Part shown: piece after piece, positions 3,592 through 34,519 of the stretch | Numbering within the stretch: the stretch's first letter is position 1 | Layout: the number at the start of each line of letters is the position of its first letter | IMG/VR virus record: IMGVR_UViG_2563366968_000009 | Length of the DNA stretch: 36,135 nt | Direction: 5' to 3' (one strand) | Origin: a virus | Taxonomy: Duplodnaviria > Heunggongvirae > Uroviricota > Caudoviricetes | Notes under the pieces: model-generated | Seen by the model: the letters and a program-made list of their open reading frames with translations, nothing else | Databases searched by the model: none | What the model was told of the DNA's origin: nothing | Translations under genes and position numbers: made by a program

Positions 3592-6039
3592 TTAACCGTC
3601 ATGCATCATGCTGGCACGGGCGCGCGCACGTTTATCCCGCTCGTATTTTTCGAGCGCATCCTGTAACTGGCGGTCAAGCTGTGTCCCCGGCGCAGTACCA
3701 CCCGTCAGGCTGATGTGATATTCGTTTTTACTCTGGTCCACATAAGAGCGGCCAGCCGGTGCCGTAACCGGCTGATAAGCCTGATAACCTGCATAAGAGC
3801 TGGTCGCCGGAATATAACCACCGGTGCCATACGTGGCGGCATGAGTTCTGGCGGCTGTCTGGTCAAGTGTGTCTGACTCTTTGTTGATGAACCCGAGCTT
3901 TTCCAGTACCCAGTCAATGCCGCTGCGTAATTTGTTGAACGCATTAAGCGGCAGCATCAGCGCGTCAGCCAGTGCCTGCCCGAACATGACGCCCGTGTCA
4001 CGGCAACGGTTCAGGGTGTCCTGGGTGGCTTTGACCGGGGCAATCAGGTTTTTAAACCACTGCCACGCAGCCTGTAACTTTTCACCCAGCCAGTCAAACA
4101 CCGGCTTAAGTGGCGTGAACAGTTCTCCCACCGGCGCAAATGCCGCTTTCAGCCCTTCCACCACACCGCCAAAGAATGCGCTGACAGGCTCCCAGTATTT
4201 ACGGATAAGTAACGCTCCGGCGACAATGGCGGCCACCACGGCCACTACCGGCCAGCTAATCGCCCCGATGGCCGTCATAACGGCACTGCCAACCGTCGTG
4301 AAAATTGCCCCCATTGCGCCTGCTGCAGCAATGATGGCATTGATGCCGGTGATAACCGGCCAGGCTACAAGACCAATGGCACCGATGATGCCAGTAAGCG
4401 CCAGTGCGCCACCGGCAATGAGGCCGATGGTTGACGCCAGTGATTTGTTTTTCTGGATCCAGCCGTCGAGTTTTAACACATACTTTGTGGCCGTCTGCGT
4501 GAGCTTACGCAGTGCGCCTTCCTGCTGGTCAAACAGGTCAGTCCCCACCGCCTCATAAGCGGACTGAAACTCTTTAAAGTCACCGCCGAGGTTGTCCTGC
4601 ATGATATTTACCAGCTCGGCGGTCTTCCCGTCTGAGGCTTTAAACGCAGCGGTCAGTTTGTCCAGCTTTCCGGTTGAGGCGGCAGTCATCAGCACGGCGG
4701 CGGCTGAGCTGGCCTCCTCCCCGAAAATAGTTTTCATGTATTCAGCCTGCTGGGCAGTACCGAGCCGGTTTTTCTCAAAACTGGCCTGCATTTCTTTCAG
4801 AATGGTAAATATTGGCCGGGTGTTTCCCTTGCTGTCTGAGGTTTTCACTCCAAGCTCTTTGAGTGCATCCCATGCTTTTCCCGTCGGTGCCTGCAGGCGG
4901 CTTAACACGGCACGGCTTCCCGTCCCCGCCATTGAGCCTGTGATTTTTGCATCATGCAGCGCCCCGACCATTGCGGCGGTTTCTTCAATGCTGACACCGG
5001 CATTTTTTGCCACAGGTGCGGCATAGGTCAGCGCATCGCTCATGCCGTCAAAATCGGCGGCGGTTTTGTTCATCGTCATGGAGAGAACATCCCCGATATG
5101 AGCGACCTTATCGTTTGAAAGCTGAAAGGCGGATTTCATCCCCATCAGCAGGGCGGCGTTTTCTTCCATCGTGCGGCGGTTCGCCAGCGCCATATTCAGC
5201 GTGACCGGCGTTGCCGCCTGAATGGCATCAACATCCCCACCCGCTTTCGCGATGATTATCTGTGCACCGGCCGCATCATCCGCCGAGGCGGCGGTATTGT
5301 CGCCGAGCTGGCGCGCCTGTTTGCGTAGTGCGGTCATTTCGGCGGAGTCTTTTGCCACTCCGAGCACGGCCTGCAATTCTGAGTTTTTCTGCGCAAACTC
5401 ATAACCGGGCATCAGCAACTTAACTCCGGCCATCGTTCCCGCCGCCGCAATCCCCACACCGGCAGCGCCCACTGAGGCCATATTTCCGGCCAGTTCCTTT
5501 CCGGCCTGATAACGCTGTTTTACTGCATTAAGTTTTGCCTGTTGCGCACTGACACGCGCCAGCGCGTCACGCTGCCGGTTAAGCTGTGCGGTGGTTTCAC
5601 TGATACGGTTTTTCAGTCCCTGCTCATCATGTGCAAGATTGCGGGTATTAATTCCCACAGCGGCCAGTTCCCGCTGCTGGCGCTTAACGGAATCCGTCAG
5701 GCGGTTATATTTCGCCTGTAAGTCCTCCGCCGCACGCTTTGCGGATTCCAGCACTTTCGCCTGAGCACGGGTCGGACGTTCAGTGTTTTTAAACTGTGTG
5801 GCAAGTGCTTCGGCTTCCTGCCGTGCCTTTTCAAGTGCATGACCAGTCACGGCAAGCTGTGCGCTGGTCTTGCGAAATCCCTCAATACGGGATGCGTGAC
5901 CGTTCAGCTCGCGCAGTGATTTTTGTGTTTCCCGGATATCCCCCGACAGCGACTTACTCGCTGTGCGGATGGATTTAAACGGGCGGGATGCCTGGTCAAC
6001 AGCCCTGAGCAATACCTGTAATTTTACATTGTTACTCAT
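3592..6039 (-). CDS. T: Tail tape measure protein gpT (815 aa)
   Basis: Long Ala/Gly-rich, coiled-coil-rich protein with a hydrophobic central segment; 815 aa as in P2 gpT; follows E/E'. Confidence 0.9.
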   Translation of the reverse strand: MSNNVKLQVLLRAVDQASRPFKSIRTASKSLSGDIRETQKSLRELNGHASRIEGFRKTSAQLAVTGHALEKARQEAEALATQFKNTERPTRAQAKVLESAKRAAEDLQAKYNRLTDSVKRQQRELAAVGINTRNLAHDEQGLKNRISETTAQLNRQRDALARVSAQQAKLNAVKQRYQAGKELAGNMASVGAAGVGIAAAGTMAGVKLLMPGYEFAQKNSELQAVLGVAKDSAEMTALRKQARQLGDNTAASADDAAGAQIIIAKAGGDVDAIQAATPVTLNMALANRRTMEENAALLMGMKSAFQLSNDKVAHIGDVLSMTMNKTAADFDGMSDALTYAAPVAKNAGVSIEETAAMVGALHDAKITGSMAGTGSRAVLSRLQAPTGKAWDALKELGVKTSDSKGNTRPIFTILKEMQASFEKNRLGTAQQAEYMKTIFGEEASSAAAVLMTAASTGKLDKLTAAFKASDGKTAELVNIMQDNLGGDFKEFQSAYEAVGTDLFDQQEGALRKLTQTATKYVLKLDGWIQKNKSLASTIGLIAGGALALTGIIGAIGLVAWPVITGINAIIAAAGAMGAIFTTVGSAVMTAIGAISWPVVAVVAAIVAGALLIRKYWEPVSAFFGGVVEGLKAAFAPVGELFTPLKPVFDWLGEKLQAAWQWFKNLIAPVKATQDTLNRCRDTGVMFGQALADALMLPLNAFNKLRSGIDWVLEKLGFINKESDTLDQTAARTHAATYGTGGYIPATSSYAGYQAYQPVTAPAGRSYVDQSKNEYHISLTGGTAPGTQLDRQLQDALEKYERDKRARARASMMHDG

Positions 6040-6459
6040 TCGTGTTTCCGCTTCGCCGGAGCGCCTTTTCGCGCCATGTGATGAGTTCGGTCAGGCTCAT
6101 GGGATACAGTTCTGATGGCGGCCAGTGAAATATCACTGCCACATCCGCCATCAGGTCATCGACCGAGAGATTTTTCGGAAACGTTACTGCACCGAGTTCG
6201 GCGACAAAAAACCGACCACCTTACCGGCCAGCGCCACAAGGTCAGGCAGCTCCAGCGCGGCGACCTCCTGCTCAGTCAGCATCGGTGCCGTCATGCGCGG
6301 CAGCACTTTAATCAGTGCATCGACTTCGGAGTTTGCGACCGCAGCCAGACTGACACCGCGCAGCGTCCCGGCATTGGGTTTCATCAGCGTGACCTGTTCG
6401 ATAACCTGCTCACCACGCTTGACCGGATTGTCCAGGGTAATCACATTTTCTTTGTTCAT
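6032..6459 (-). CDS. E+E': gpE+E' fusion produced by programmed -1 ribosomal frameshift (142 aa predicted)
   Basis: Hand translation: mRNA reads ...GGT TTT TTG TCG...; after a -1 slip at T.TTT.TTG the reading frame continues for 57 codons to a TAA at 6032..6034, overlapping the T start codon. Total of 85 + 57 = 142 aa equals the P2 E+E' length. Confidence 0.75.
6184..6459 (-). CDS. E: Tail assembly chaperone gpE (91 aa)
   Basis: 91-aa ORF immediately upstream of T, as in P2; contains a slippery TTTTTTG 19 nt before its stop codon. Confidence 0.85.
   Translation of the reverse strand: MNKENVITLDNPVKRGEQVIEQVTLMKPNAGTLRGVSLAAVANSEVDALIKVLPRMTAPMLTEQEVAALELPDLVALAGKVVGFLSPNSVQ
6205..6211 (-). 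promoter_or_regulatory. Slippery heptamer TTTTTTG (on minus strand) for the E/E' -1 frameshift
   Basis: Plus-strand CAAAAAA at 6205..6211 gives TTTTTTG on the coding strand, in the frame T.TTT.TTG relative to E. Confidence 0.7.
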
Positions 6460-6515
6460 GGTTTTCTCACTTCTGAATCAGGGTTAACCGGTCAGCCAGG
6501 CTGACCGGATGAAAA

Positions 6516-7034
6516 TCACAGGCCGATATTGCGGCGGTGTTGCTCCAGCCGGTCGACGCCGTTCACCTTCTCAATCATGTTGATGGTGTCAATTTCGACC
6601 AGCTCCTTACCGTCCATCGTCAGCCGGAAATAGGTGCAGACCACGGAGATTTTCGACTCGGTGTCTTCTCCCTGTTTACCCTCGCCGGTGTCGATTTCTT
6701 TCTGACGGCCACGCATGACCACTTCGACGGCCACCGTTTCGCCGGTATCGTCACGCTGGTAAGAGCCTGCAAAACGAATCGGCACGGCATCCACACCGGT
6801 TGCGGCGTAAAGTTCCCAGATAACCGAATCCGGGAAGCCCCCGAGCGACCACTCCATTGACAGCGCATCGTCATCAAGGCCGAGGTCTACCGGTGCGCTG
6901 CCGTTCATCCCCGCACCGCGATAGTTTTCGAGCTTACGGGTCAGTTTTGGCAGCGTGACGGACTTCGCGACGCCCTGATAGCTGTAGCCGTTCAGAAAGA
7001 CGTTCATTAACTTGAGTTTGCGCGGCATTGCCAT
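6516..7034 (-). CDS. FII: Tail tube protein gpFII (172 aa)
   Basis: Length and synteny match P2 FII. Confidence 0.85.
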   Translation of the reverse strand: MAMPRKLKLMNVFLNGYSYQGVAKSVTLPKLTRKLENYRGAGMNGSAPVDLGLDDDALSMEWSLGGFPDSVIWELYAATGVDAVPIRFAGSYQRDDTGETVAVEVVMRGRQKEIDTGEGKQGEDTESKISVVCTYFRLTMDGKELVEIDTINMIEKVNGVDRLEQHRRNIGL

Positions 7035-8448: not shown

Positions 8449-9498
8449 TTAACTACATGAATCAATGATGTTTTTCACAAGCTTATTTATTTCAGATTCA
8501 TTAGTGCCAAATTCACCCGCTTTAAAATTAATACCTCGCGCTGCAAGATTTCTTTTTATTTTACTTACTTCACTCAGCATAAAGTCATAATTTAACGTTT
8601 TTTCTTTAATGCCCTTTGAATATATTACAGGGAAGGCTTTCATTAATGCCGCATATCCTGTGAGTTTACTTAAATAATATTCCCTTGGTGTATTCCACTC
8701 AACTGGATAGACATTGCTAATAGCATTAAAATAATTCAATATTATTTTTTGAATTACAGCGTCATTCTCTTCGATAAAATAATCGCGGAATATACACTGA
8801 TTATTTGGCGTTAATGGCAGATTCATTTTTAACATTCTTGCATCATCATCAGGTTTTTTTGAAATATGTTGGATAAGATATTTAATGAAAGTGCTTTGTG
8901 ATAATGATGCATTATCTTGGTTTATTTCCTTTTTCCCAAGCATTTTTAGCTTTTTATAAAAAGGGGAATCAGGATTACTGTTTATTCCTCTCGCGATTTC
9001 GTGGCATGTTTTTTGTGGACTCCTGCGTTCTGCAAGCGAAAATAAATCATATACAATTGATGGATTTACACGAGTTTGTTTACTATTAATAATTGAGAAA
9101 ACATAGGCTTTTTCTTCATCAGTAAGATCAAACATTAAAACAACAGGTAGTTCAAAAAGTTTAGCATTAGAGGAATTTTTAATTCCCCATAATCTGTGTT
9201 GACCATCGATAACATCACCTATAACCACTTCAGACTCAAAGTAAAAATAGGTATCATCCATTTTTAAATTGGATGAATCATCGACGGAAATTATGATCGG
9301 CGTTGGAAAAGTCGCATCCGGCTCACTAGTGTACTTTGCGATTTCTGAAACTCTTGATGATGAAATATCCCTTTGCACACCAAATTCGAAATCTCTGCGA
9401 CGATCAACTCTAACTATATCGAGCAAGTCAATGGCTCTTATTGATGTTAAATAGAAAGTACCGATTGGTTGATTAACTTCAATATATTTCAACTTCAT
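8449..9498 (-). CDS. DGQHR-motif protein (DndB-like, predicted ParB/Srx-fold), 349 aa; cargo gene 2
   Basis: Motif VIDGQHRLWG at residues 96-105 plus an N-terminal Q-R dipeptide (VQRD, residues 41-44), as in DndB-type proteins. AAGGAG Shine-Dalgarno 7 nt upstream; start ATG overlaps the stop of the upstream membrane gene (ATGA). Visibly AT-rich compared with flanking tail genes. Confidence 0.7.
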   Translation of the reverse strand: MKLKYIEVNQPIGTFYLTSIRAIDLLDIVRVDRRRDFEFGVQRDISSSRVSEIAKYTSEPDATFPTPIIISVDDSSNLKMDDTYFYFESEVVIGDVIDGQHRLWGIKNSSNAKLFELPVVLMFDLTDEEKAYVFSIINSKQTRVNPSIVYDLFSLAERRSPQKTCHEIARGINSNPDSPFYKKLKMLGKKEINQDNASLSQSTFIKYLIQHISKKPDDDARMLKMNLPLTPNNQCIFRDYFIEENDAVIQKIILNYFNAISNVYPVEWNTPREYYLSKLTGYAALMKAFPVIYSKGIKEKTLNYDFMLSEVSKIKRNLAARGINFKAGEFGTNESEINKLVKNIIDSCS

Positions 9499-10094
9499 AT
9501 CATAACTCCTTTACCATCATCAGTTACTTCATTGGTTGCCATTGTCTGATCTATAACTATTGCATCTTCTTTTTCTATATAACTTTCATCATTTATATCT
9601 GTATGTGCAGTAGCGTTAAGTTTTAATACGCCAAATGTATAGCATACTAAGACTATAGAAATAACATAAATTATAGGTTGAGTTAAACCGAATGTTAAAT
9701 CATTAGAATTTGGTAGGATTAAATCCTTTGATTGCGTAGCAGCGTATATTATTCCTGATAATTGTAATAAAATAATCAATAATATTATTGATATGATTTT
9801 TATTGTTTTAAATTCAAGTTTTGAACTAAAAAAAGTTACAAACATAGGCCCAAGGGCAGAGGCTATTAATGCAATGGAAAATGTGTAAAAACTTCCTGAC
9901 GAACCTTCTATGTAAATAGATTGATCTAGTGGTATTGAATGTGAATAATATCTTATGATTATATTTGCAATAATCCCCATTTGCCCACAAACAACTGTAA
10001 AAACGATCCAAATAAAAAACTCTCTTTTGTTTTTTCTTATCGCATCGAATGGATAGGAAAGGGATTTCTTTAATATTTGCCAGTCTTTACTCAT
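9495..10094 (-). CDS. Predicted 4-TM inner-membrane protein with acidic C-terminal tail (about 199 aa); cargo gene 1
   Basis: Four hydrophobic segments (approx residues 29-50, 72-92, 101-122, 142-160 of the track ORF). The track ORF begins at a GTG (10103); I prefer the ATG at 10094 (MSKDWQ...). AT-rich; first gene of a coupled two-gene operon. Confidence 0.6.
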   Translation of the reverse strand: MSKDWQILKKSLSYPFDAIRKNKREFFIWIVFTVVCGQMGIIANIIIRYYSHSIPLDQSIYIEGSSGSFYTFSIALIASALGPMFVTFFSSKLEFKTIKIISIILLIILLQLSGIIYAATQSKDLILPNSNDLTFGLTQPIIYVISIVLVCYTFGVLKLNATAHTDINDESYIEKEDAIVIDQTMATNEVTDDGKGVMI

Positions 10095-10498
10095 GTTATG
10101 CACTCTTTATTTAAACTTATCAACAATATGTAACTATCAATTAATAACCGTTTACTCTTTTCAAATAATAAAATTATAATCATCAAAAAAATCGACATTA
10201 TAATTAGACAACATTTTTAACACTAAGTGATACCTGACTCATGTCTCCAGACCCTAAAACCGCTTGCATAATTTAGAATGATAATACTACCTTATAGTAG
10301 GCTTGTGAACTTATATAGCATGAGTCAAGTAATTAATAAATCACTTATTTCGTTTTTTTTGCATTTGGTCGCTGTGATTTTTTCATAAACAAACTTACAA
10401 TGATGTCAGCAATGTCTGCTCTTGGCACAGAGCGGACTGTCAGATTAGTTTTTACTCTGTGCCATAGATGTATAAACTCACATCAGAGCTTATACAAT

Positions 10499-11077
10499 TT
10501 ATTGTGGCATTTCAGGCCATTCTATATCCGGAGCATCTTCCGGCTGAATGCGATTCAGTAGCACACGGTATTTTTTCCAGTGTGTCAGGCTTAACTTTTC
10601 TTCCTCAGTTGCCATATCCAAATCGACAGCATCCTGCAGCGTGGCAATAATTTCACCTGCATATGCAATCTGCTCTTTCTTCTGAGACTCAGCCGCTCTG
10701 ACAAGTGCATCACGCTCTGCATTCTCATCATTCACCCACGCATTTCCGTTCCATTTCTGATAATCCCCCTCCGGGGAAATGGCTGTCACGTCTGGAGATA
10801 ATGCGCCAAGTTCAGAAATATAAATGGCTGCTCCCGTTTTCGTTTCGTATACGGTCTTTCCGCGATGGTCTTCCATCAACTCCCATTTCATTTCATCTGC
10901 ATTGAAAACGGCTGCATAACCAGCCGGTATATCAGGCGGCGCAATATCTGTACTGTTTGCAGGCAAACCTGTATACGGAGGAATATATGCATCACTTTCG
11001 CCAATAAATTCATTGGTTCCATCAAGTAAATTGAAAACGCGGATAGTTTGTGCTTCTGCACTCATTCTGAAAGCCAT
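10499..11077 (-). CDS. G: Tail fiber assembly chaperone gpG
   Basis: Position immediately after H with TAATG stop/start overlap, and size, match P2 G (Tfa family). Confidence 0.8.
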
Positions 11078-13695
11078 TATGCAAGCCTCACAATATAGTT
11101 AAATGCGATGTTTTTGACGGTGTTTTCGGTATTACCTGTAGCATTAACGGTAATAGAGTGCCCGTGTGAGCCAATAGCAACCGTGTGTGAATGTGCACCA
11201 ATACCAACCGTATGATTATGTGCGCCAATATCTACCGTGTGGGCATGATTCCCGGCAGCTCCTGATGTGCCATTAAACGATGGGTTGTCAAAGCCTGTTT
11301 TACCGGTTTCACCATTAGTATTGGCATTCCCTCTGTAAATGGTATGTGTATGGTTACCAGTGGTATTAGTGGTTTTTGTTCCGTAGTTAAACGTACTGAC
11401 TGTCTTCGTCCCGTAATCAAATGAACTGGTCGTTTTCGTCCCTAAATCCGTATTTGACGCACTGGCACTGTGAGTATGCGATTTAATCCCGTCCTGTTCC
11501 TGTGACAATACGGCACGCCCACTGGCGGGTTTGCCCTTGATTGTCCAGCCGCGCATATCTGGAATAACACCAGAAGGATAGACAATAGCCAGTTTCGGAT
11601 ATGCAGCCTTATCAAACGTCTGACCCTGCATAATTGCATAGCCTGCAGGTGGTGTATCTGATGGCCACGGCAGCGGAACACCAGGCGGAAACGCTTCAAT
11701 ATCTTTCGTCCCGTCAAAGGTTACGCCGTTAATTGTCCTTGCCGTTTTCAGCTTTGTTGCTGTAGCAGCATTGCCGGACAGTTCGCCTGAAAGACCGGCG
11801 CTGAAGGTTTGTTTCGCCGCCCATGTCTGGGCTTCGTCAATAATTGGCACACGTCTTGTGGTGATCGTGCGACTTCCCGGATTTCCTGAAATACGCACCA
11901 TAAAAAAGCGGTAGTTCGCTTTACTTACAGTGCTGCGCCATACATGCATTGAGCGCCCCGCACCGGAATCATCACTCGGACCAACTGAGATGTTTATCAG
12001 GTTGCCATCAATGACGCCCCAGTCCATACCTTCGGGAATGTTGGTCATGTTATCAAGCCGAACGGTTATCAGACTGCCCGGCACAAAGTCGTAGGTCTGC
12101 CAGTCCAGGCTGGAGAGTTTTGCCACTGCACCGCCGATACCCAGATTCAGGGGAAGTGAATACGAGGTGTAGACTTCCCGCCATTCGCTCCACGAGCTGC
12201 CGGTATAGACGCGCTCAAACGTGCGACCTTTAAGGGTTGCACCTGTTCCGGCAGTTGTATAACGCTGCCATACGTTAACACCATCAAAGCGCCTCAACAC
12301 TTCCAGAATCCCGAGGACTGTCACGCCGTTTCCGTCCAGTATTGGACCGTTGGTCGCTTTACCTGTAACGCTGTAAATACCTGGTGAAGTCACCTCATTC
12401 AAATCCCCGTCGTAATAACGACTCTCTGACTGATGACCGACTCTTAACCACGGTTCCCACTGTGGATTTGATGCATCCCAGCTTGCCGCAAGGCAGCGGA
12501 CATACATATTTCCACGGCGAGTGGTATAACGTTGCGTTCTTCCATAATTCCCGCCTTCGAGGATCTCAAGCATCCCCTGAGCAAAGCCGCCTTCCTCTGG
12601 ATAATTGCGTTCATATGAAGCTATAGCCGAGCTACTGTTACGCCATAAACCAAGATGCTCGGCGGCTCCAAGCGTATTCAGGTCTATAGTCGTACTCAAA
12701 GGGCGGGTAGCAGATTGAGTGTGACGCCATACGCCCCACGGACCATCAGTGCCATTCCACTTATTGGCGAGTTTACGCATGTAAACATTGCCGTCTCTCG
12801 TGGTAAAGCGTTGCGTACCTGCAAAATTGCCGGCAGCAAAAACCTCAAGCACACCGACAGCATTATCTTCCGGGAAATTTTTCTCCAGTGTTGCGTTAGT
12901 TGAGGTAGCTTTAGACCAGATCCCCAGATAAGCCTTAACGGGACCAAATGTATTCAGGTCGGCATCAACCGGCATTTCGCCATTGTTTTTCATAAACGTC
13001 AGACTGGTAACGCCAACATTGTCCAGAAAAGCTGATTTATCCTGGATATCTGCACCATTCTGATTTTTCGCCAGACGTGAATTTGCGTTGTCATTTGCTG
13101 CCTTGACCGCTTTTGGCGTTGCCGCCAATGACTCACTGGTGCTGTTTGTTGCACTGCTTAACTGAGTAAAACCTTTTTCTGTCAGCGTGGCGTCAGGATG
13201 GCGGCGGGACTGCTCATGTTCTGCGATTTTGTCATCGACGTAATCCTGCGTCGCCATCACTGTGCTGGCATCAATACTCAGCTCAACGGACGCCACGTTA
13301 CTGACAATAATAACCATGCGGCAGGTCTGCGCACGCCCGGAGCCTTCAGCGAGTTCAGGCTTATAGCTTTCTGCCATGTTGGCGACCGCAATCAGTGTTC
13401 CGGCATCGTCATACAGACCAAGCTCACGCATCCAGAAGCCGCCCACTTCGGGCGGTACAACCAGTTCAGCCACGATATAGTTTTTATTCTTATTATCCAC
13501 GCTGACTTTATTCAGAGCGTGACGCCAGACCTCATGCACCAGTTTCGTCTGACCGGCATCCGGCACCGGCAATTTGCCATTACCGTCACCCACGGCCATT
13601 GCAGACAGGTTTACTTTTTTCCCGCCGGGGACAGTGGCGGCTGCCAGCTTCGCGGCTCCGGCAGTAGTGATAACGGTTTTAAATTTCGTGCTCAT
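11077..13695 (-). CDS. H: Tail fiber protein gpH (872 aa) with divergent distal half
   Basis: N-terminus ([20 protein letters not shown]...) matches P2 H from memory. The central region has three related ~60-aa repeats; the C-terminus has periodic GxHxHTV repeats. Confidence 0.85.
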
Positions 13696-24334: not shown

Positions 24335-25368
24335 TGAGTAAGAAAAAAGGGAAAACACCGCAGCCAGCGGTGAAAACAATGACCGCCAGCGCCCCGAAAA
24401 TGGAGGCATTCACCTTTGGTGAGCCGGTGCCGGTACTCGACCGCCGTGACATTCTGGATTACGTCGAGTGCATCAGTAACGGCAGATGGTATGAGCCACC
24501 GGTCAGCTTTACCGGTCTGGCAAAAAGCCTGCGTGCCGCCGTGCATCACAGCTCACCGATTTACGTCAAACGTAATATTCTGGCTTCAACGTTTATCCCG
24601 CATCCGTGGCTTTCCCAGCAGGATTTCAGCCGCTTTGTGCTGGATTTTCTGGTGTTCGGTAATGCGTTTCTGGAAAAGCGTTACAGCACCACCGGTAAGG
24701 TCATCAGACTGGAAACCTCACCGGCAAAATATACCCGCCGTGGTGTGGAAGAAGATATTTACTGGTGGGTGCCATCCTTCCATGAGCCGACACCTTTCGC
24801 GCCCGGCTCCGTGTTTCACCTGCTGGAGCCGGATATTAATCAGGAGCTGTACGGTCTGCCGGAATATCTCAGCGCCCTTAACTCTGCCTGGCTGAATGAA
24901 TCAGCCACGCTGTTCCGCCGCAAGTATTACGAAAATGGCGCTCATGCCGGATACATCATGTACGTCACCGATGCCGTGCAGGATCGCAACGATATCGAAA
25001 TGCTCCGCGAAAACATGGTGAAGTCGAAAGGCCGCAACAACTTTAAAAACCTGTTTCTCTATGCCCCGCAGGGGAAAGCTGACGGCATCAAAATTATCCC
25101 GCTCAGTGAAGTGGCGACAAAGGACGATTTTTTTAATATCAAAAAATCCAGCGCCGCTGACCTGCTGGACGCGCACCGCATCCCCTTTCAGTTGATGGGC
25201 GGCAAGCCGGAGAACGTCGGGTCGCTGGGCGATATTGAGAAAGTGGCAAAGGTCTTTGTCCGCAATGAGCTTATCCCGTTACAGGACAGGATTCGGGAAA
25301 TAAACGGCTGGCTCGGTCAGGAGGTCATCCGCTTTAAAAACTACTCACTGGACACTGACAACGGCTGA
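24334..25368 (+). CDS. Q: Portal protein gpQ (344 aa)
   Basis: Length and synteny match P2 Q. Confidence 0.9.
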   Translation: MSKKKGKTPQPAVKTMTASAPKMEAFTFGEPVPVLDRRDILDYVECISNGRWYEPPVSFTGLAKSLRAAVHHSSPIYVKRNILASTFIPHPWLSQQDFSRFVLDFLVFGNAFLEKRYSTTGKVIRLETSPAKYTRRGVEEDIYWWVPSFHEPTPFAPGSVFHLLEPDINQELYGLPEYLSALNSAWLNESATLFRRKYYENGAHAGYIMYVTDAVQDRNDIEMLRENMVKSKGRNNFKNLFLYAPQGKADGIKIIPLSEVATKDDFFNIKKSSAADLLDAHRIPFQLMGGKPENVGSLGDIEKVAKVFVRNELIPLQDRIREINGWLGQEVIRFKNYSLDTDNG

Positions 25369-25373
25369 ACATC

Positions 25374-25395
25374 GCCGCCTGCGGGCGGCTTTTTT
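25374..25395 (+). terminator. Rho-independent terminator after Q
   Basis: GCCGCC-TGCG-GGCGGC hairpin followed by TTTTTT, 6 bp after the Q stop codon. Confidence 0.7.
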
Positions 25396-25537
25396 ACACC
25401 CCGTCATCACGCCCTCACACGCTCACCACCGCACAAAACACCCCGCAGACACACCAACGCCTCAACGGGCAGACTAAGCGCGGTCACGACGCGCTCAGGC
25501 GCTGAAAAAATAAAATCAGCACCACCGCCTGCGCGCA

Positions 25538-25556
25538 GTGCTTTCCCCGCCTCGCC
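25538..25556. other. cos: cos site (19-nt cohesive end), reverse complement of GGCGAGGCGGGGAAAGCAC
   Basis: Plus-strand GTGCTTTCCCCGCCTCGCC is the reverse complement of the P2 cohesive-end sequence as I recall it; it lies just downstream of Q, where P2 cos is found. Confidence 0.7.
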
Positions 25557-25633
25557 CGCCCGCTTCATGGGTCGGTTTGAATGCAGTTGAATTACAACTA
25601 CCAAACCAAGCAATCCCTACTATTACGCAGAAA

Positions 25634-25680
25634 ATGCATACTGAAATACCTCGTGCAAATTGATGCAGCTAAGTATGCAT
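25634..25680 (-). terminator. Possible terminator or structured element 3' of the cargo gene
   Basis: 9-bp inverted repeat ATGCATACT (25634..25642) and AGTATGCAT (25672..25680) followed on the minus strand by UUUUCUG. A perfect 12-bp palindrome AACGTATACGTT (25695..25706) abuts the stop codon. The long loop makes this uncertain. Confidence 0.3.
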
Positions 25681-25707
25681 AGGTTTTATGCCTCAACGTA
25701 TACGTTA

Positions 25708-27540
25708 TCAAACAGAGCCCTGTTCAAATACAGTATCAAAATATGGTAGGAGAGGATAAGCACACAGAAAGAAAATCAGGATGCATGCATATGTCGTTGT
25801 TTCATCGTAACAAGCATTAGTATATAAATTACCATGTGCTAATTTATGTCTTAAGGTTGCCCCACTCTTTCTATTAAAAAGAACATCGATAGTTAAAACA
25901 AGATTCTTAGAAAAGATACTTTCCAAATCATCTCTGCATTTATCTAGAAGCTGAGAAATACTTGTTGACTCCTCTAATCCCTTATCCAAATATCTAGTAG
26001 CATCCTTTCCACTAAGCTCATAATAATAACGAACCATACCTTCCATTTGTGGTATTAAAAGATAAGCTGCACTGATGTAATCTCCCTGCCATAATTTGTA
26101 AAAGCCCAAATTAAAAATCTCCCTAAACTCCGGCTTGACAATTGGACTAGTTGTAACTAATTTAACGAATGTTGACAACGTCAAGCCATGTTCTTGAGAA
26201 AGTACATAGCGAGCAGGTTCAAAGACACCGTTTACAAAAATCTTATGAGTAATCTCGAAATTTCTTAGATATTGATCAATAACAACATCATCACTCATAT
26301 CTTTTTTATTATCCAACGGCGGGATTGTATATACCTTACGCCCACTCTCATCATTAATTTCTGTTCCAACAAAACTAGAGAATAAACTTTTTTCTGATAA
26401 TCTTAAAACTTGCTCCCTCATGCTTTCAATATTTTCAATCGGTGTTTCACGCATTAAAACTTTGAATATATCGGGCAAAGAACGCCCCGTCAGTTTTTTT
26501 TCACTTTCAGCAACCAAGTCACTAATATCAATAGAATGGCTTAAAGTGACATATTCACTCCTTACTTCTTCTCTCAAATTAGCAAGTTGTTCCTTTAAAT
26601 CTTCTATCTGTTGGCTATCACCACCGTACTGTCTTAATTCAGAGATAGCTGTTCTTAACCAAGAGATCTTACCCATATTATCAGGTCGATCTGTTGCAAC
26701 TTTAATAGTAATATTTGCAGATGCCAGTTTACATCTCTTGGCACGTTCATACTCACCATTTTTTTCATAAATAACTGCACTTGTCATATAAAGTGATTTT
26801 ACAGCATCATAATATTTTTTATCTTTATGCTGCTCAGCCATCTTCTCAGCATTTTCCGCATACTGCAGATTATACCCATCAAAATCACGCACCATAAACC
26901 AAGTCAAATTATTGAAACCTTCAAAGATTAATCTTTCATTTTGAATACTATAAAGAGAATGAATGGCATTTTTAATCGCCATGTTTCCTTCTGATTTTCT
27001 AGGGTAGACCATTTTATTAATGTGCAAAGCCCTAGCAATATAATCACGAGCAAAAATAAAGCAATTTAAATCACTTTCATCCATGCTTTCGTTTTTTATT
27101 ATTAGTTTTTCAATTGCTATATTTAGCATTTCAGCATAGGAATCAATTGCTTTAATTGCCACGTCTTTATTTTTCCGGTTATTACACCAAACAACATCAT
27201 ATATTCTTGATAACAAAAATGGATTGGTTATTTTTTGAGAAACATATAAAAGACAGTCATTCACCTGCTCATCAAAATCTTCAGGCAATATTGATCTTTT
27301 ATTACCCCAAATCATTTGGGGTTCAAATGATGGAGTGTTGTTAACAACTTGCAAATTGAAACTATATAGCATACCAAAAAGAGATGCTAATTTTTTCTCT
27401 TTGGGGTTTCCTGATGATTCAGCAATCCCATCCAGATATTTTTTTATTTTATGTGCATGAAATGTAACTGGTATATGCATAAAAACACTATAATCTAGTG
27501 TTTCAAGCTCTTCCCTTGTAAGAACAAAGATATCATTCAT
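25708..27540 (-). CDS. Large standalone protein (about 610 aa) with C-terminal HEPN-like R-x4-H motif; cargo at the tin/old position
   Basis: C-terminal ...NRKSGATLRHKLAHGNLY... contains R-x4-H. Start placed at the ATG at 27540 (MNDIFVLTREE...) with AAGGTG 6 nt upstream; the track ORF starts at an upstream TTG (27642). Visibly AT-rich; occupies the slot between cos and gene A. Confidence 0.6.
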   Translation of the reverse strand: MNDIFVLTREELETLDYSVFMHIPVTFHAHKIKKYLDGIAESSGNPKEKKLASLFGMLYSFNLQVVNNTPSFEPQMIWGNKRSILPEDFDEQVNDCLLYVSQKITNPFLLSRIYDVVWCNNRKNKDVAIKAIDSYAEMLNIAIEKLIIKNESMDESDLNCFIFARDYIARALHINKMVYPRKSEGNMAIKNAIHSLYSIQNERLIFEGFNNLTWFMVRDFDGYNLQYAENAEKMAEQHKDKKYYDAVKSLYMTSAVIYEKNGEYERAKRCKLASANITIKVATDRPDNMGKISWLRTAISELRQYGGDSQQIEDLKEQLANLREEVRSEYVTLSHSIDISDLVAESEKKLTGRSLPDIFKVLMRETPIENIESMREQVLRLSEKSLFSSFVGTEINDESGRKVYTIPPLDNKKDMSDDVVIDQYLRNFEITHKIFVNGVFEPARYVLSQEHGLTLSTFVKLVTTSPIVKPEFREIFNLGFYKLWQGDYISAAYLLIPQMEGMVRYYYELSGKDATRYLDKGLEESTSISQLLDKCRDDLESIFSKNLVLTIDVLFNRKSGATLRHKLAHGNLYTNACYDETTTYACILIFFLCAYPLLPYFDTVFEQGSV

Positions 27541-27656
27541 CGTTTTCACCTTTTTCAGTATAAATTTGCACACATTATTAGCAACATAATTATCAATAGT
27601 TAACACATGCAGATAAACAGCAATTTTACTATTATGCAACAAATTAAATCAGATGT

Positions 27657-29939
27657 TTATTGCTCTGAATAACAATAAAACCAACTCCACTCATCAGCGA
27701 CCGGATACGTAAATTTTTTCCCGTTGTAATCTACGGTCGCACCACGCGCCAGCGCCTCAAGCTCCCATCGCTGCGGCCTGATACCCTTTTGAGCAAGGTC
27801 AACACGGATACGGGTAATTTGCATTCGTTCCGACCTGGTCAGTCTGGCCGATGGTGCCATTTCATATGGTTTTAACGGGCTTCCGTTTCTTTGCTGACGG
27901 TTTTGCGTTCTCCGACCGTGTTTTAATGCGCCTCTGAGCGCCCTCACAACCTCCGGGTCATTCCATTCTATAACCCCGTCATCAACCAGATTAAGCACTG
28001 CTGCAGCGTGCTCAGACGGTGTGGGAGCCGGTAACGAAGCATCACTACCGGTGAGCTTTCCACAGTTATTGACAGGACTCCGAGGCGCGGCGATGCCGCT
28101 TTTTAAAGTCAAAGGCTCAACGACCGGAACTTTCGGAACAATGCGCCAGTCCGTCGTTCTGGTGATATGAATATGACGCGCGCCGAGATGCGGCGCGTAA
28201 ATGCCGACCACTCTCTCGACTTCTTCCTCGTACTCGTTAACTTCATCCGACGGGCTACGGGCAACCCTGACAGTCTGACAATCGCGCGGGACATTTGCCC
28301 CACCCTGCGCGCTGATATACAACGCAAAATCACCACTGTCTGCGGCGGCGCGTGCAGCCTCGACGCGTTCGTCAAACTCATCAGCAATGCTGACGCCGCG
28401 AGGCAATTTGCGTAGTTCACGGTAAGCGCCCATTGTCGGCAGGCCAACCGTTTTAAATTGCGGGATACGCCACGTTGACGCCCATGCGGTAACAGCCGCT
28501 GCAGTGTCTTTCAGCGGCCTGCCGGTATCGTTATCGAGCTGACCATCCAGTGCATAGCCGTCGATGTTTTTTGAGATGTATTTCGCGATATACCCCGCAG
28601 CACCGCCCCGGTTAAGGTGTTTTGCCTGAAAACGGTTTCGCGCAGCTCCTCTTTCGTCGCCATCCTCTTTGAGTGCGTAGCGACGCATGATTTCGATAAT
28701 CTGGTTACGCTGGCGCGGATTACAAAAAAGCATCATATGCCAGTGCGGCGTTCCGTCGTGGTGTGGCTCGACGACACGCAAACCGTAGACCTGTAAATCA
28801 TTATCCTTGAATGCCGTGCGCATCAGGCTCCAGATATGGCAGAGATAACGCTGCGCATCCTTTGGATTAAATGCCTCATCGTTCCAGCCGTGATTTAGCT
28901 GGACGGTTTTACTTTCGCCTTTTCCGACCTGACGTGTCGGGTGATACTTTGACGGCGCGGTCAGCGTGATAAACATCCCCACATCACCCTCTGCTGCGGC
29001 GTAACGCTCAATACCGGCAATGGTGTTCATCAGCTCCATCCGGCGAATTTCAGGATTAGAAATACTGCCCATCACCTTACTGATAAGGTCGATGCGCTCG
29101 CCGGTTTCCCTGTTTTCAAGGTCACACGATTTAAGAAATTCCAGATTTGCCTGGCGGCGTGCACGTACATCACGAATGGCATGTTTACTGGCATAAGGAG
29201 AACGGTCTTTATTCACCTCCCCGACAGCAATCAGTAACGCCTCATGCCAGCGCATACGCTGGCCTTTAAGCTGATGAGTCCACCACTCATCGTTAAACAG
29301 ACGGGCAATGGCAGAATATGCCTGCCTCGTGGTCATCTGTCCTTTACGGTATTTTTTCCAGTAGAGAGGGGAAATATTGAAAGCTCGTGCAGCGCCAGCA
29401 ACATGACCATACAGGTGATCCTGAGCCTCATCCGTAAACAGTGATTCTTTTTCGCCATGCGCATCCACCCAGGCATCGCTGAGTTCCTCATACATCATGA
29501 AAAGCTGCGATGAGATACGGGCGGCAAACTTTTTCAGCTCCTTGTCATTCATTCCCGGCAGGCGCGCATAGTGGTCACGCTCTGCCAGAAACAGCAACGA
29601 CGCGTCGGTGTTCATTTCATGGCGCTGATTCACACGCTCAATGCGCGGCCATAAACGACGCTGAAAAGTGGATGTGAGGAAATAAAACCCGTGCACCGGG
29701 CTTTTATTGCGCCGGATGTAGTCATAGCGTGAAGTAAACAGCGAGCGCAAAAAGTAAGGCAGGCGGTTAATCGTGGATAAAACACCTTGCACCTGACGCA
29801 TCTCGTCACGTGTAAGGGGTCTTTCGCGCCCGACGGCCTCGCGTGGCGCGTTCCATGCATAAGCACCGGTAAACGTCTTACCGGTGCCTGCGGCAAATGC
29901 TGACGGAGGGACAAAACGCCCGGAGGCTTTAACGACCAT
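27657..29939 (-). CDS. A: Replication initiation protein gpA (rolling-circle nickase), about 760 aa
   Basis: Protein matches P2 gpA from memory (MAVKASGRFVPPSAFAAGTGK...; here MVVKASGRF...). Start placed at the internal ATG; the track ORF (to 29981) is 14 codons longer. The exact start is uncertain. Confidence 0.8.
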   Translation of the reverse strand: MVVKASGRFVPPSAFAAGTGKTFTGAYAWNAPREAVGRERPLTRDEMRQVQGVLSTINRLPYFLRSLFTSRYDYIRRNKSPVHGFYFLTSTFQRRLWPRIERVNQRHEMNTDASLLFLAERDHYARLPGMNDKELKKFAARISSQLFMMYEELSDAWVDAHGEKESLFTDEAQDHLYGHVAGAARAFNISPLYWKKYRKGQMTTRQAYSAIARLFNDEWWTHQLKGQRMRWHEALLIAVGEVNKDRSPYASKHAIRDVRARRQANLEFLKSCDLENRETGERIDLISKVMGSISNPEIRRMELMNTIAGIERYAAAEGDVGMFITLTAPSKYHPTRQVGKGESKTVQLNHGWNDEAFNPKDAQRYLCHIWSLMRTAFKDNDLQVYGLRVVEPHHDGTPHWHMMLFCNPRQRNQIIEIMRRYALKEDGDERGAARNRFQAKHLNRGGAAGYIAKYISKNIDGYALDGQLDNDTGRPLKDTAAAVTAWASTWRIPQFKTVGLPTMGAYRELRKLPRGVSIADEFDERVEAARAAADSGDFALYISAQGGANVPRDCQTVRVARSPSDEVNEYEEEVERVVGIYAPHLGARHIHITRTTDWRIVPKVPVVEPLTLKSGIAAPRSPVNNCGKLTGSDASLPAPTPSEHAAAVLNLVDDGVIEWNDPEVVRALRGALKHGRRTQNRQQRNGSPLKPYEMAPSARLTRSERMQITRIRVDLAQKGIRPQRWELEALARGATVDYNGKKFTYPVADEWSWFYCYSEQ

Positions 29940-32497: not shown

Positions 32498-33511
32498 ATG
32501 GCAATCAAAAAACTCGATGATGGTCGATATGAAGTGGACATCCGCCCTACTGGACGTAATGGAAAACGCATCCGTAGGAAGTTTGATAAGAAAAGCGAAG
32601 CTGTCGCTTTCGAGAAATACACGTTGTACAACCACCACAATAAAGAATGGCTATCAAAACCAACAGACAAACGACGTCTGTCGGAACTGACACAGATCTG
32701 GTGGGATTTAAAGGGTAAACACGAAGAGCATGGGAAATCTAATCTTGGAAAAATTGAAATCTTCACAAAAATAACGAATGACCCATGCGCATTTCAAATC
32801 ACGAAATCCCTTATCAGCCAGTACTGCGCCACCCGAAGAAGTCAGGGTATTAAACCTTCGAGTATCAATCGTGATTTAACATGTATTAGCGGCATGTTTA
32901 CAGCCCTGATTGAAGCGGAGTTATTCTTTGGTGAGCACCCTATCAGAGGGACAAAGAGGCTTAAGGAGGAAAAACCAGAAACAGGCTATCTCACACAGGA
33001 AGAAATTGCCTTACTGCTTGCAGCACTTGACGGCGACAATAAAAAGATTGCGATTCTTTGCCTGAGTACAGGAGCACGTTGGGGAGAAGCAGCTCGTTTG
33101 AAAGCAGAAAATATCATCCATAACCGCGTCACGTTTGTTAAAACGAAAACAAACAAACCACGCACCGTCCCGATCTCAGAGGCTGTTGCCAAAATGATCG
33201 CGGATAACAAACGAGGTTTTTTATTCCCTGATGCTGATTACCCTCGCTTCAGACGAACAATGAAAGCAATAAAACCGGATTTGCCAATGGGGCAAGCCAC
33301 ACATGCACTAAGGCACAGCTTTGCCACTCATTTCATGATTAATGGAGGAAGTATTATTACGCTACAACGGATACTAGGTCACACGCGGATTGAGCAAACG
33401 ATGGTTTACGCTCATTTTGCGCCAGAGTACCTTCAGGACGCCATTTCTCTTAATCCGCTAAGAGGTGGTACTGAGGCCGAGAGTGTCCACACAGTGTCCA
33501 CAGTAGAGTAA
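32498..33511 (+). CDS. int: Tyrosine integrase (337 aa)
   Basis: Length and position next to attR match P2 Int; C-terminal R...HxxR...Y-type catalytic region (ATHALRHSFATH...MVYAHF); GGAGGG Shine-Dalgarno. Confidence 0.9.
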   Translation: MAIKKLDDGRYEVDIRPTGRNGKRIRRKFDKKSEAVAFEKYTLYNHHNKEWLSKPTDKRRLSELTQIWWDLKGKHEEHGKSNLGKIEIFTKITNDPCAFQITKSLISQYCATRRSQGIKPSSINRDLTCISGMFTALIEAELFFGEHPIRGTKRLKEEKPETGYLTQEEIALLLAALDGDNKKIAILCLSTGARWGEAARLKAENIIHNRVTFVKTKTNKPRTVPISEAVAKMIADNKRGFLFPDADYPRFRRTMKAIKPDLPMGQATHALRHSFATHFMINGGSIITLQRILGHTRIEQTMVYAHFAPEYLQDAISLNPLRGGTEAESVHTVSTVE

Positions 33512-33787: not shown

Positions 33788-34105
33788 TCACTCTCCACAT
33801 TTGAATGTCAGACGAGCGACGCCATGTAATCCTGCACCTTCTGTCTTCAGGTCAACTATCTGCATTTTTTTGCCCTGAGTAACACAGAAATGAGCTGCAT
33901 CATTTTTTACTATATTTTCTGCACCAGATATTCTGCCCCTGGCTAAAGAAGCTTCGGCTTCGGTGTAGTATTGGTTATCGAGTTTACGCTGAATATTACT
34001 TTTATATGCAAGACCAAATTTACCGATACTTGTCTCATCATTATGTACAGCACACCCAGACATAAGAAAAACACTAATTAATGATATAGCAGCTATCTTT
34101 TTCAT
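33788..34105 (-). CDS. yegR: Lipoprotein YegR (105 aa)
   Basis: MKKIAAISLISVFLMSGC... has a signal peptide and lipobox. Start placed at the internal ATG (105 aa) rather than the extended track ORF. Synteny with yegS as in E. coli. Confidence 0.75.
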   Translation of the reverse strand: MKKIAAISLISVFLMSGCAVHNDETSIGKFGLAYKSNIQRKLDNQYYTEAEASLARGRISGAENIVKNDAAHFCVTQGKKMQIVDLKTEGAGLHGVARLTFKCGE

Positions 34106-34519
34106 CTTACCTTCCCCCATTAAATACCAACGACACGCTCTGGTGTTAAAATATAATAATGGCATGATTATTATAATTGAATAGGATTATAATAAATGTT
34201 CTGTACAACATTTCCTACATAAGTAGGAATTACAAACATGAAGCCCTGCCCAGGTATCCCCATGAGGGCTTTAATATATTTAGAATAAGATAGTGAAGAT
34301 GCCACTGTTTAGTTGAATATTAGGTATATGCTCTTTTTTGAAATTTACCGGTGGCTACCGTTAACATTCACTGTCCCCATTGCAAGCTCCTGGTGGTAAC
34401 CACTGAATCCTCCATACTTGAACTGATTTTTTATCCTCCGACTTTCATCCTGTTCTGACTCCACCTTTTCTTTTCTGCTCTACACTATCTACAGACCAAT
34501 CATAAAGGCACATACGATC

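Follow-up and report, generated by a model that had tools for sequence, protein, structure and literature searches.

A solo PDC-S39 gene in the P2 old/tin hotspot as a candidate autoinhibited single-chain HEPN RNase

Introduction

Why would a P2-like prophage carry one large, AT-rich gene in the slot where P2 itself has old and tin, and what might the product of such a gene do? The question is raised by the Caudoviricetes record IMGVR_UViG_2563366968_000009 of IMG/VR, a stretch of 36,135 nucleotides (henceforth, the window) that holds a complete P2-like prophage at approximately 1935-33511, with its integrase gene at 32498-33511 and host DNA on both sides. In the open reading frame (ORF) list of the window, the interval from the end of the portal gene Q (25368) to the stop of the replication gene A (27657) contains cos and one sizeable gene on the minus strand. 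A first-pass annotation of this DNA, made from its letters without database searches, had described an AT-rich gene of about 610 amino acids (aa) filling the gap from cos to A, and this description stands: the G+C (GC) fraction of the 610-aa gene is 0.332, as against 0.53 for A and Q, and the gene is therefore best seen as acquired cargo. Here we place its product in PDC-S39, a single-gene "phage defence candidate" of PADLOC, define its domain architecture and the conserved residues that mark it as a HEPN protein, and weigh its possible functions. On balance, we consider it probable that the gene encodes an autoinhibited single-chain HEPN RNase deployed in defence, a stand-alone member of PDC-S39 borne as AT-rich cargo that replaces old and tin of P2.

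An invariant HEPN signature at the C-terminus

HEPN domains are defined by an Rx4-6H motif, in which the R is directly followed by a polar N, D or H, along with an upstream acidic residue that is usually part of an E-x3-[KR] motif (PMC3710099). The claim that a C-terminal R-x4-H marks this protein as a HEPN RNase went back to the string ATLRHKLAHG, which corresponds to residues 561-570 and includes R564 and H569. When this protein is shuffled, an R-x4-H motif turns up in 42% of cases, so that the motif alone is not significant and takes its meaning only from its invariance across the family. We accordingly aligned homologues, the check that the first-pass annotation had proposed for the R and the H. 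Among 134 relatives that are 20-37% identical to the query, the sole invariant columns are E500, R564 and H569, with R504 conserved in 99% and G570 in 96%. R-x4-H is found in each of the 133 full-length representatives, in 128 of which it takes the form R-[HN]-x2-A-H-G, and the position after R564 is always an H or an N among the relatives. The identification of the HEPN signature is thus upheld by both the alignment and the representatives, and is extended by the conserved E-x3-R upstream. The DUF4209/C6orf70 group, to which this domain belongs (see below), is one of the HEPN families predicted to be catalytically active, with bacterial members that show fusions to TPRs and occur in operons related to restriction-modification (R-M) systems (Anantharaman et al. 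2013, PMC3710099). The prediction of an active RNase domain at the C-terminus is well supported by this pattern of conservation.

Family membership and domain architecture

The first-pass annotation could neither name the family from the sequence nor recognize the large N-terminal region; both can be identified. The two PADLOC hidden Markov models for PDC-S39 match residues 7-598 of the 610 (1e-84 and 1.6e-83), and all 68 diverse relatives used in our domain scans match both models. Starting at residue 4 and extending to 184, the protein matches Pfam PF24098 (DUF7380) with an expectation value (E) of 1.2e-39 and 136.4 bits against a cut-off of 27, as do 68/68 relatives. Within this domain, R82, D88, R112, D115, W118, Y135 and R170 form the set of family-conserved polar residues. 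It is followed by a TPR-like solenoid, a beta-hairpin with a long connecting helix and, finally, the HEPN domain (Table 1). Membership of the latter in PF13910 (DUF4209) holds by transitivity, with the protein's own score below the cut-off, because PF13910 is detected at E<=0.01 in 59 of the 68 relatives (best 9.4e-13) and because 114 proteins, mostly annotated with PF13910, are recovered down to 2.5e-67 with a profile made from the C-terminal 159 residues. In PHROGs, the match is to phrog_5183, whose function is listed as unknown. A sensory role for the N-terminal region, as had been suggested, may be envisaged for the DUF7380 domain and the solenoid. Other searches were less informative: The protein has no match in NCBIfam; searches of PDB sequences with the single protein, a full-length profile and a C-terminal profile recovered no relative, with only a weak TPR match to TTC29 (E 0.026) and noise; and a word-indexed profile search with the 68-sequence alignment did not reach beyond the single-sequence search.

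A profile search of 1.84 billion cluster representatives recovered 3356 clusters at E<=1e-3, of which 614 are at E<=1e-30. The proteins in these clusters are nearly all approximately 600-640 aa long and align from end to end; they therefore constitute a large family of fixed architecture. Its named members come from Enterobacter, Gluconobacter, Herbaspirillum, Methylobacterium and uncultured Caudoviricetes, and are annotated only as DUF4209- or DUF7380-domain proteins. We also observed short stand-alone DUF4209 proteins of approximately 150-290 aa (P0209, P0214 and P0270) on long contigs of up to 6.3 Mb, one of them from Nostoc. The HEPN module thus seems to exist also without the DUF7380 domain and the solenoid, or as a split gene, and such short forms would be natural "uninhibited" versions for comparison.

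Predicted structure

An AlphaFold2 (AF2) model built on a deep alignment as a monomer is confident and compact (mean predicted local distance difference test, pLDDT, 95.1; predicted template modelling score, pTM, 0.88). In the HEPN region, it has helices at 470-485, 488-509 and 545-568, an insert at 510-544, and a last long helix at 580-606. E500 of the E-x3-R motif is part of helix 488-509, the end of helix 545-568 carries R564, and H569 opens the loop before the last helix. As modelled, this placement of E500, R564 and H569 is the topology described for HEPN domains (PMC3710099), with the insert 510-544 added. The high pTM indicates that the N-terminal parts pack compactly against the HEPN domain, an arrangement that, in the model, would be compatible with autoinhibition.

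A Phobius call of one transmembrane helix ("1 TM") is flagged for the protein in the table of Rousset et al. (PMC9122126). The most hydrophobic 19-mer is indeed the C-terminal helix 581-600 (Kyte-Doolittle 1.78). In the relatives, the equivalent helix has a charged residue in 126 of 134 sequences and a mean hydropathy of approximately 1.05, and AF2 packs it as the last helix of the HEPN bundle with a pLDDT of approximately 97. We therefore reject the annotation; the call is probably a false positive peculiar to this allele.

Genomic distribution and context

The gpA-gpQ locus, which in P2 holds old and tin, is a hotspot of anti-phage systems (Rousset et al. 2022, PMC9122126), and the gene under study lies in just this place, between A and Q and beside cos, as the first-pass annotation had recognized in assigning it to the old/tin slot. 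Among 50,697 phage records, the exact gene occurs in one, Escherichia phage vB_EcoM-569R9, whose locus is 98.8% identical. It is likewise present in 55 of 5426 complete Escherichia coli genomes, always as a single chromosomal copy of at least 95% identity (at least 99% in 54 of them); the one match that we inspected, in an O157:H7 strain, has the identical order of Q, the gene and A. The same slot is occupied by homologues of 28-67% identity in P2- and 186-like prophages of Klebsiella and Kosakonia and on metagenomic contigs. Another homologue has an Abi_alpha gene as its neighbour within a separate prophage-like region, and further distant members are found among Mrr-type restriction nucleases, or as a solitary chromosomal gene among housekeeping genes.

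None of the homologous contexts that we examined has a conserved partner gene; the gene is therefore a one-gene unit, and the single-gene organization proposed for it extends to every context examined. In particular, there is no adjacent antitoxin gene, such as one for an MNT nucleotidyltransferase, between Q and A in the window, and no conserved neighbour in the homologous loci. On a Methylobacterium contig (L013), we noted a distant member flanked by two genes for restriction-nuclease-like proteins with Mrr_cat domains (5284-6882 and 10535-11719) and by a P22 antirepressor-like gene, a defence-island-like context that is consistent with the remark of Anantharaman et al. on "R-M related operons" (PMC3710099).

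Earlier catalogue entries and phage challenge

The protein was catalogued by Rousset et al. (2022) as system 13, "DUF4209", with 193 occurrences (Table S5B), and the gene was cloned from E. coli S88 as pFR103, a one-gene "Putative HEPN" system of the P2 locus (Table S2B; PMC9122126). The pFR103 protein is identical to that of the window over the 399/399 residues compared, its insert DNA agrees in 398/399 bases compared, and the Table S5B representative in 396/399 residues. By its primer positions, the insert corresponds to window positions 25349-27740, both flanks included. The constructs of that study relied on the native promoter and a low-copy pSC101 vector in MG1655, and were challenged with the phages lambda, T4, P1, 186cIts, CLB_P2, LF82_P8, AL505_P2 and T7 (PMC9122126). 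Eight extra systems of the P2 hotspot were tested, and three were reported active, this gene not among them (PMC9122126).

Hence, of the first-pass proposal of an uncharacterised single-protein defence, the family is indeed uncharacterised, while novelty is absent, this allele having already been labelled, cloned and phage-challenged. Earlier publications cover the gene and its HEPN label, place it in the hotspot and report a first, negative challenge; the gene is best described as a known, widespread and unproven defence candidate. To this we add the signature E500/R504/R564/H569, a full-length model (pLDDT 95), the polar cluster of DUF7380 as a target for mutagenesis, and an argument that the "1 TM" call is spurious. 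Beyond the 2013 HEPN survey and database listings, we found no functional study of the family in the literature; the supplements of Vassallo 2022 and Payne 2024 do not mention it, and other papers name PDC-S39 merely in genome-survey listings.

Relationship to known systems

The closest relationships are those of identity and membership. The window protein and pFR103/system 13 are the same protein at the same locus, and the study reporting the latter left the family, its conserved residues and its structure unanalysed. As a member of PDC-S39, the protein matches along its full length and has the same single-gene organization, with no structural difference; PDC-S39 is itself a prediction by guilt-by-embedding. 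The C-terminal domain is further homologous to the C6orf70/ERMARD-type family (PF13910) and bears the motifs R-[HN]-x3-H-G and E-x3-R. The eukaryotic prototype is described as a membrane protein of the endoplasmic reticulum (ER) that has one transmembrane helix and is predicted to take part in ER-associated RNA decay (PMC3710099). In contrast, the bacterial and phage form is probably soluble, has an N-terminal DUF7380 domain and resides in mobile-element hotspots. We found no biochemically characterized member of the C6orf70/ERMARD type in the literature.

Other resemblances are those of organization. HEC-08, which combines a DUF3644 HEPN domain with zinc ribbons, is a single-gene phage defence whose activity is lost when the histidine of its Rx4-6H motif is mutated (bioRxiv 10.1101/2024.01.29.577857). 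Like it, the window protein unites in one polypeptide a HEPN domain with the Rx4-6H motif and non-catalytic accessory domains. However, the HEPN family is a different one, the HEPN domain of HEC-08 is N-terminal, the accessory domains differ, and defence is experimentally shown for HEC-08 and predicted here; we detected no sequence relationship between the two. ApeA is another validated single-gene HEPN defence protein. RNase L and Ire1 offer an analogy only, in that an N-terminal helical-repeat ligand sensor governs the dimerisation of a C-terminal HEPN RNase. Their KEN domain is a HEPN domain in which the histidine of the motif is essential (PMC3710099). The window protein is not a member of that group: It lacks a kinase or pseudokinase domain and ankyrin repeats, belongs to another HEPN family and has no known ligand. 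Finally, with Old and Tin of P2, which are encoded by proven exclusion genes (PMC9122126), it shares the prophage position between A and cos, with one gene here as against two in P2. No Pfam or PADLOC match links it to Old (an OLD-family ATPase-Toprim nuclease) or Tin.

A proposed mechanism and its alternatives

The explanation that we favour would work as follows. The C-terminal domain would act as a metal-independent HEPN RNase with an active site made up of E500/R504 and R564/H569, and two such domains would pair in a homodimer, as with other HEPN RNases. In the healthy lysogen, the approximately 450 N-terminal residues, comprising DUF7380 and the solenoid, would hold this RNase off until a cue from infection by a competing phage or another mobile element leads to its activation. 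Cleavage of cellular and/or phage RNA could then arrest the cell and abort the infection, from which both the resident prophage and the lysogens as a population would gain. MG1655 tolerated the native fragment on a low-copy plasmid (PMC9122126), which speaks against a constitutively toxic product and agrees with an effector under autoinhibition. Further points in favour of such a defence RNase are the catalytic type of conservation, the precedent set by HEC-08, and the occurrence of the family in the hotspot and in defence-island contexts.

Several points weigh against it. After challenge with eight coliphages, pFR103 was listed among the "additional tested systems" of Table S2B and not among the "validated systems" of Table S2A (PMC9122126), a result that approaches the lack of a defence phenotype by which the first-pass annotation would have abandoned its proposal, albeit with only eight phages and one host. 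This published negative might be due to a lack of expression, the promoter being only putative, or to the wrong phages. In PADLOC, the PDC group comprises 145 "untested" candidates, which Payne et al. (bioRxiv 10.1101/2024.01.29.577857) derived from genes located inside BREX, DISARM and type I R-M loci. We found no RNase activity, trigger or target in the literature for any member of the family. The protein's own PF13910 match (residues 524-590, E 0.0011) scores 19.5 bits, below the cut-off of 22.3, and searches with the three-dimensional structure returned no HEPN matches.

A bolder version of the favoured explanation, which we offer tentatively as a possibility, is that PDC-S39 as a whole consists of widespread autoinhibited single-chain HEPN RNases in which a DUF7380 pocket lined by R82, D88, R112, D115, W118, Y135 and R170 senses a conserved cue, amounting to a new sensor-effector logic. 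Conceivable cues are small molecules, modified nucleic acids, and products of satellites or phages that were lacking in the eight-phage panel; the targets of the P2-borne copies might then be P4-like satellites or phages outside that panel.

The breadth of the family also bears on a rather unlikely alternative, namely that the protein is an active HEPN RNase serving conflicts specific to P2, be it with P4-like satellites or rival P2-like phages, or has a prophage-stabilizing (addiction-type) or RNA-processing role without a plaque phenotype. Such a role would accommodate the lack of validated protection against the eight phages, P2-like 186cIts among them, as well as the position of the gene directly adjoining cos, an element common to P4 and P2 (PMC9122126). 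The conserved R82, D88, R112, D115 and R170 also suit a conserved ligand better than fast-evolving phage proteins. However, the family numbers 3356 clusters, includes proteins of Gluconobacter, Methylobacterium and Herbaspirillum, and so extends far beyond P2-like phages; members occur outside prophages, among restriction nucleases or as a solitary chromosomal gene; and PDC-S39 was selected as embedded in BREX, DISARM or R-M systems. Because of this, a P2/P4-specific role is unable to explain the whole family.

We consider it still less probable that the protein is the toxin of a toxin-antitoxin-like pair, with its antitoxin in a small ORF or RNA of the flanks, i.e., the region of the 3' repeats or the 116-bp leader. 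In prokaryotes, HEPN proteins are often toxins whose antitoxin is encoded next to them (PMC3710099), and the tolerated clone carried both flanks, such that a cis-encoded antidote is conceivable. Against this, the contexts examined show no conserved partner, the window has neither an MNT gene nor another ORF resembling an antitoxin between Q and A, the 3' flank is no more structured than expected by chance, and the upstream regions of homologues are not conserved; the 450 conserved N-terminal residues are, moreover, a more economical source of autoinhibition. That the C-terminal domain is no working nuclease at all, with the protein being a scaffold or a membrane-anchored helical-repeat protein and R-x4-H a structural element, we regard as very improbable. 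The frequency of R-x4-H in shuffles, the hydrophobicity of helix 581-600 with its Phobius call, and the structure searches without HEPN matches would all agree with it, but E500, R564 and H569 stand alone as invariant among 134 divergent sequences, a pattern that belongs to catalytic sites rather than to structural motifs, and the charged residues and confident packing of the helix make the transmembrane call probably false.

Should a defence phenotype be found for the favoured RNase, a very widespread single-gene HEPN effector, with more than 3000 clusters at 50% identity in Proteobacteria, cyanobacteria and phages, would join the defence repertoire. The bacterial branch of the C6orf70/ERMARD HEPN family would thereby also gain its first function, which would in turn offer a way into the uncharacterised eukaryotic protein.

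Gene boundaries and flanking signals

The mechanical ORF call yields an ORF of 644 aa (25708..27642, minus strand) that opens at an upstream TTG, the start used in GenBank ON470601. We rejected this start and chose the ATG at 27540 because it is preceded by the Shine-Dalgarno sequence AAGGTG, the N-termini of homologues align on that Met, and RefSeq/PGAP annotates the identical 610-aa coding sequence (CDS) in E. coli O157:H7. Across databases, the annotated start of the gene varies from 644 aa (TTG; ON470601) through 632 aa (the cluster representative, P0001) to 610 aa (RefSeq), the affected stretch being 27541-27642 on the minus strand. The coordinates of the gene, its domains and its flanking elements are collected in Table 1.

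Table 1. Coordinates in the window of the PDC-S39 gene, its encoded domains and motifs, and its flanking elements
Feature	Position	Strand	Details
CDS, 610 aa and TGA stop (25708-25710)	25708..27540	-	Single-gene cargo of the gpA-cos-gpQ hotspot; DUF7380 / helical solenoid / DUF4209-HEPN; PDC-S39, PHROG 5183
DUF7380 domain, residues 4-184, mixed alpha/beta	26989..27531	-	Pfam PF24098, conservation, secondary structure
All-helical TPR/SNAP-like solenoid, residues 185-385	26386..26988	-	
Beta-hairpin 393-406 (conserved D397, G400) and long connecting helix 417-450, residues 386-454	26179..26385	-	Model, conservation
DUF4209 / C6orf70-type HEPN domain, residues 455-606	25723..26178	-	PF13910, C-terminal profile, topology, family class (PMC3710099)
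HEPN E-x3-[KR] motif, codons E500-G-M-V-R504	26029..26043	-	E500 invariant, R504 99% conserved
HEPN R-[NHD]-x3-H motif, codons R564-H-K-L-A-H569-G570	25831..25851	-	R564 and H569 invariant, G570 96%
Shine-Dalgarno AAGGTG	27547..27552	-	6 nt before ATG 27540
Sigma-70-like site: TTAACT (27598-27603), 17-18 nt spacer, TAATAA/AATAAT (27574-27580)	27574..27603	-	Promoter plausible, not above background
3' flank: perfect 9-bp inverted repeat (25634-42 / 25672-80) and 12-bp palindrome AACGTATACGTT (25695-25706)	25634..25706	.	Without statistical or thermodynamic support as a terminator

The Shine-Dalgarno sequence is the gene's own, as had been annotated, and lies in the interval of 116 bp (previously given as 115 bp) between the stop of A and the ATG. 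The hexamers TTAACT and TAATAA of the promoter postulated in the same interval are present, and the fragment cloned by Rousset et al. covers them. Their occurrence does not rise above the background of AT-rich DNA: the region 25300-27800 has 13 promoter-like sites, against 9.1 +/- 3.6 in shuffles, and the upstream regions of five homologous loci are too diverged to be aligned for conservation of a promoter.

On the 3' side, the 12-bp palindrome and the 9-bp inverted repeat that were said to mark the end of the gene both exist, with no demonstrable signal in them. Perfect 12-bp palindromes number nine in the window, and, besides the one in the 3' flank, three of them sit within this gene. The RNA of the 3' flank folds no better than its shuffles (z = -0.58), and a scan of the flank for terminator-like sites found none. 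We therefore rejected the two repeats as a terminator or operator signal.

On the Q side, the hotspot is bounded by 25538-25556 (minus strand), which we take to be the reverse complement of the 19-nt cos of P2, GGCGAGGCGGGGAAAGCAC. The same string is found beside the P4 hotspot in cloned sequences of Rousset Table S2B (PMC9122126). A GC-rich ORF of 68 aa (25407-25613, minus strand) overlaps cos and spans the cohesive-end sequence; it is annotated as a "hypothetical protein" in ON470601, the record of a near-identical phage, and is probably spurious.

Other low-GC loci in the window

The prophage has a second AT-rich island at 8449-10103 on the minus strand (GC 0.29-0.34), between the tail-fibre assembly gene and the sheath gene FI, which is the Z/fun slot of P2. 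It consists of two overlapping genes, one for a 349-aa protein with a DGQHR motif (Pfam DndB, 5.4e-11; PADLOC DpdB, 1.2e-16) and the other for a 202-aa multi-pass membrane protein that has no family match. The island looks like another cargo or defence-candidate pair. Lastly, a 125-aa ORF without a Pfam match (33788-34165, minus strand) is situated in a low-GC patch (0.36; 34001-34500) just past the integrase, at or beyond the junction of prophage and host.

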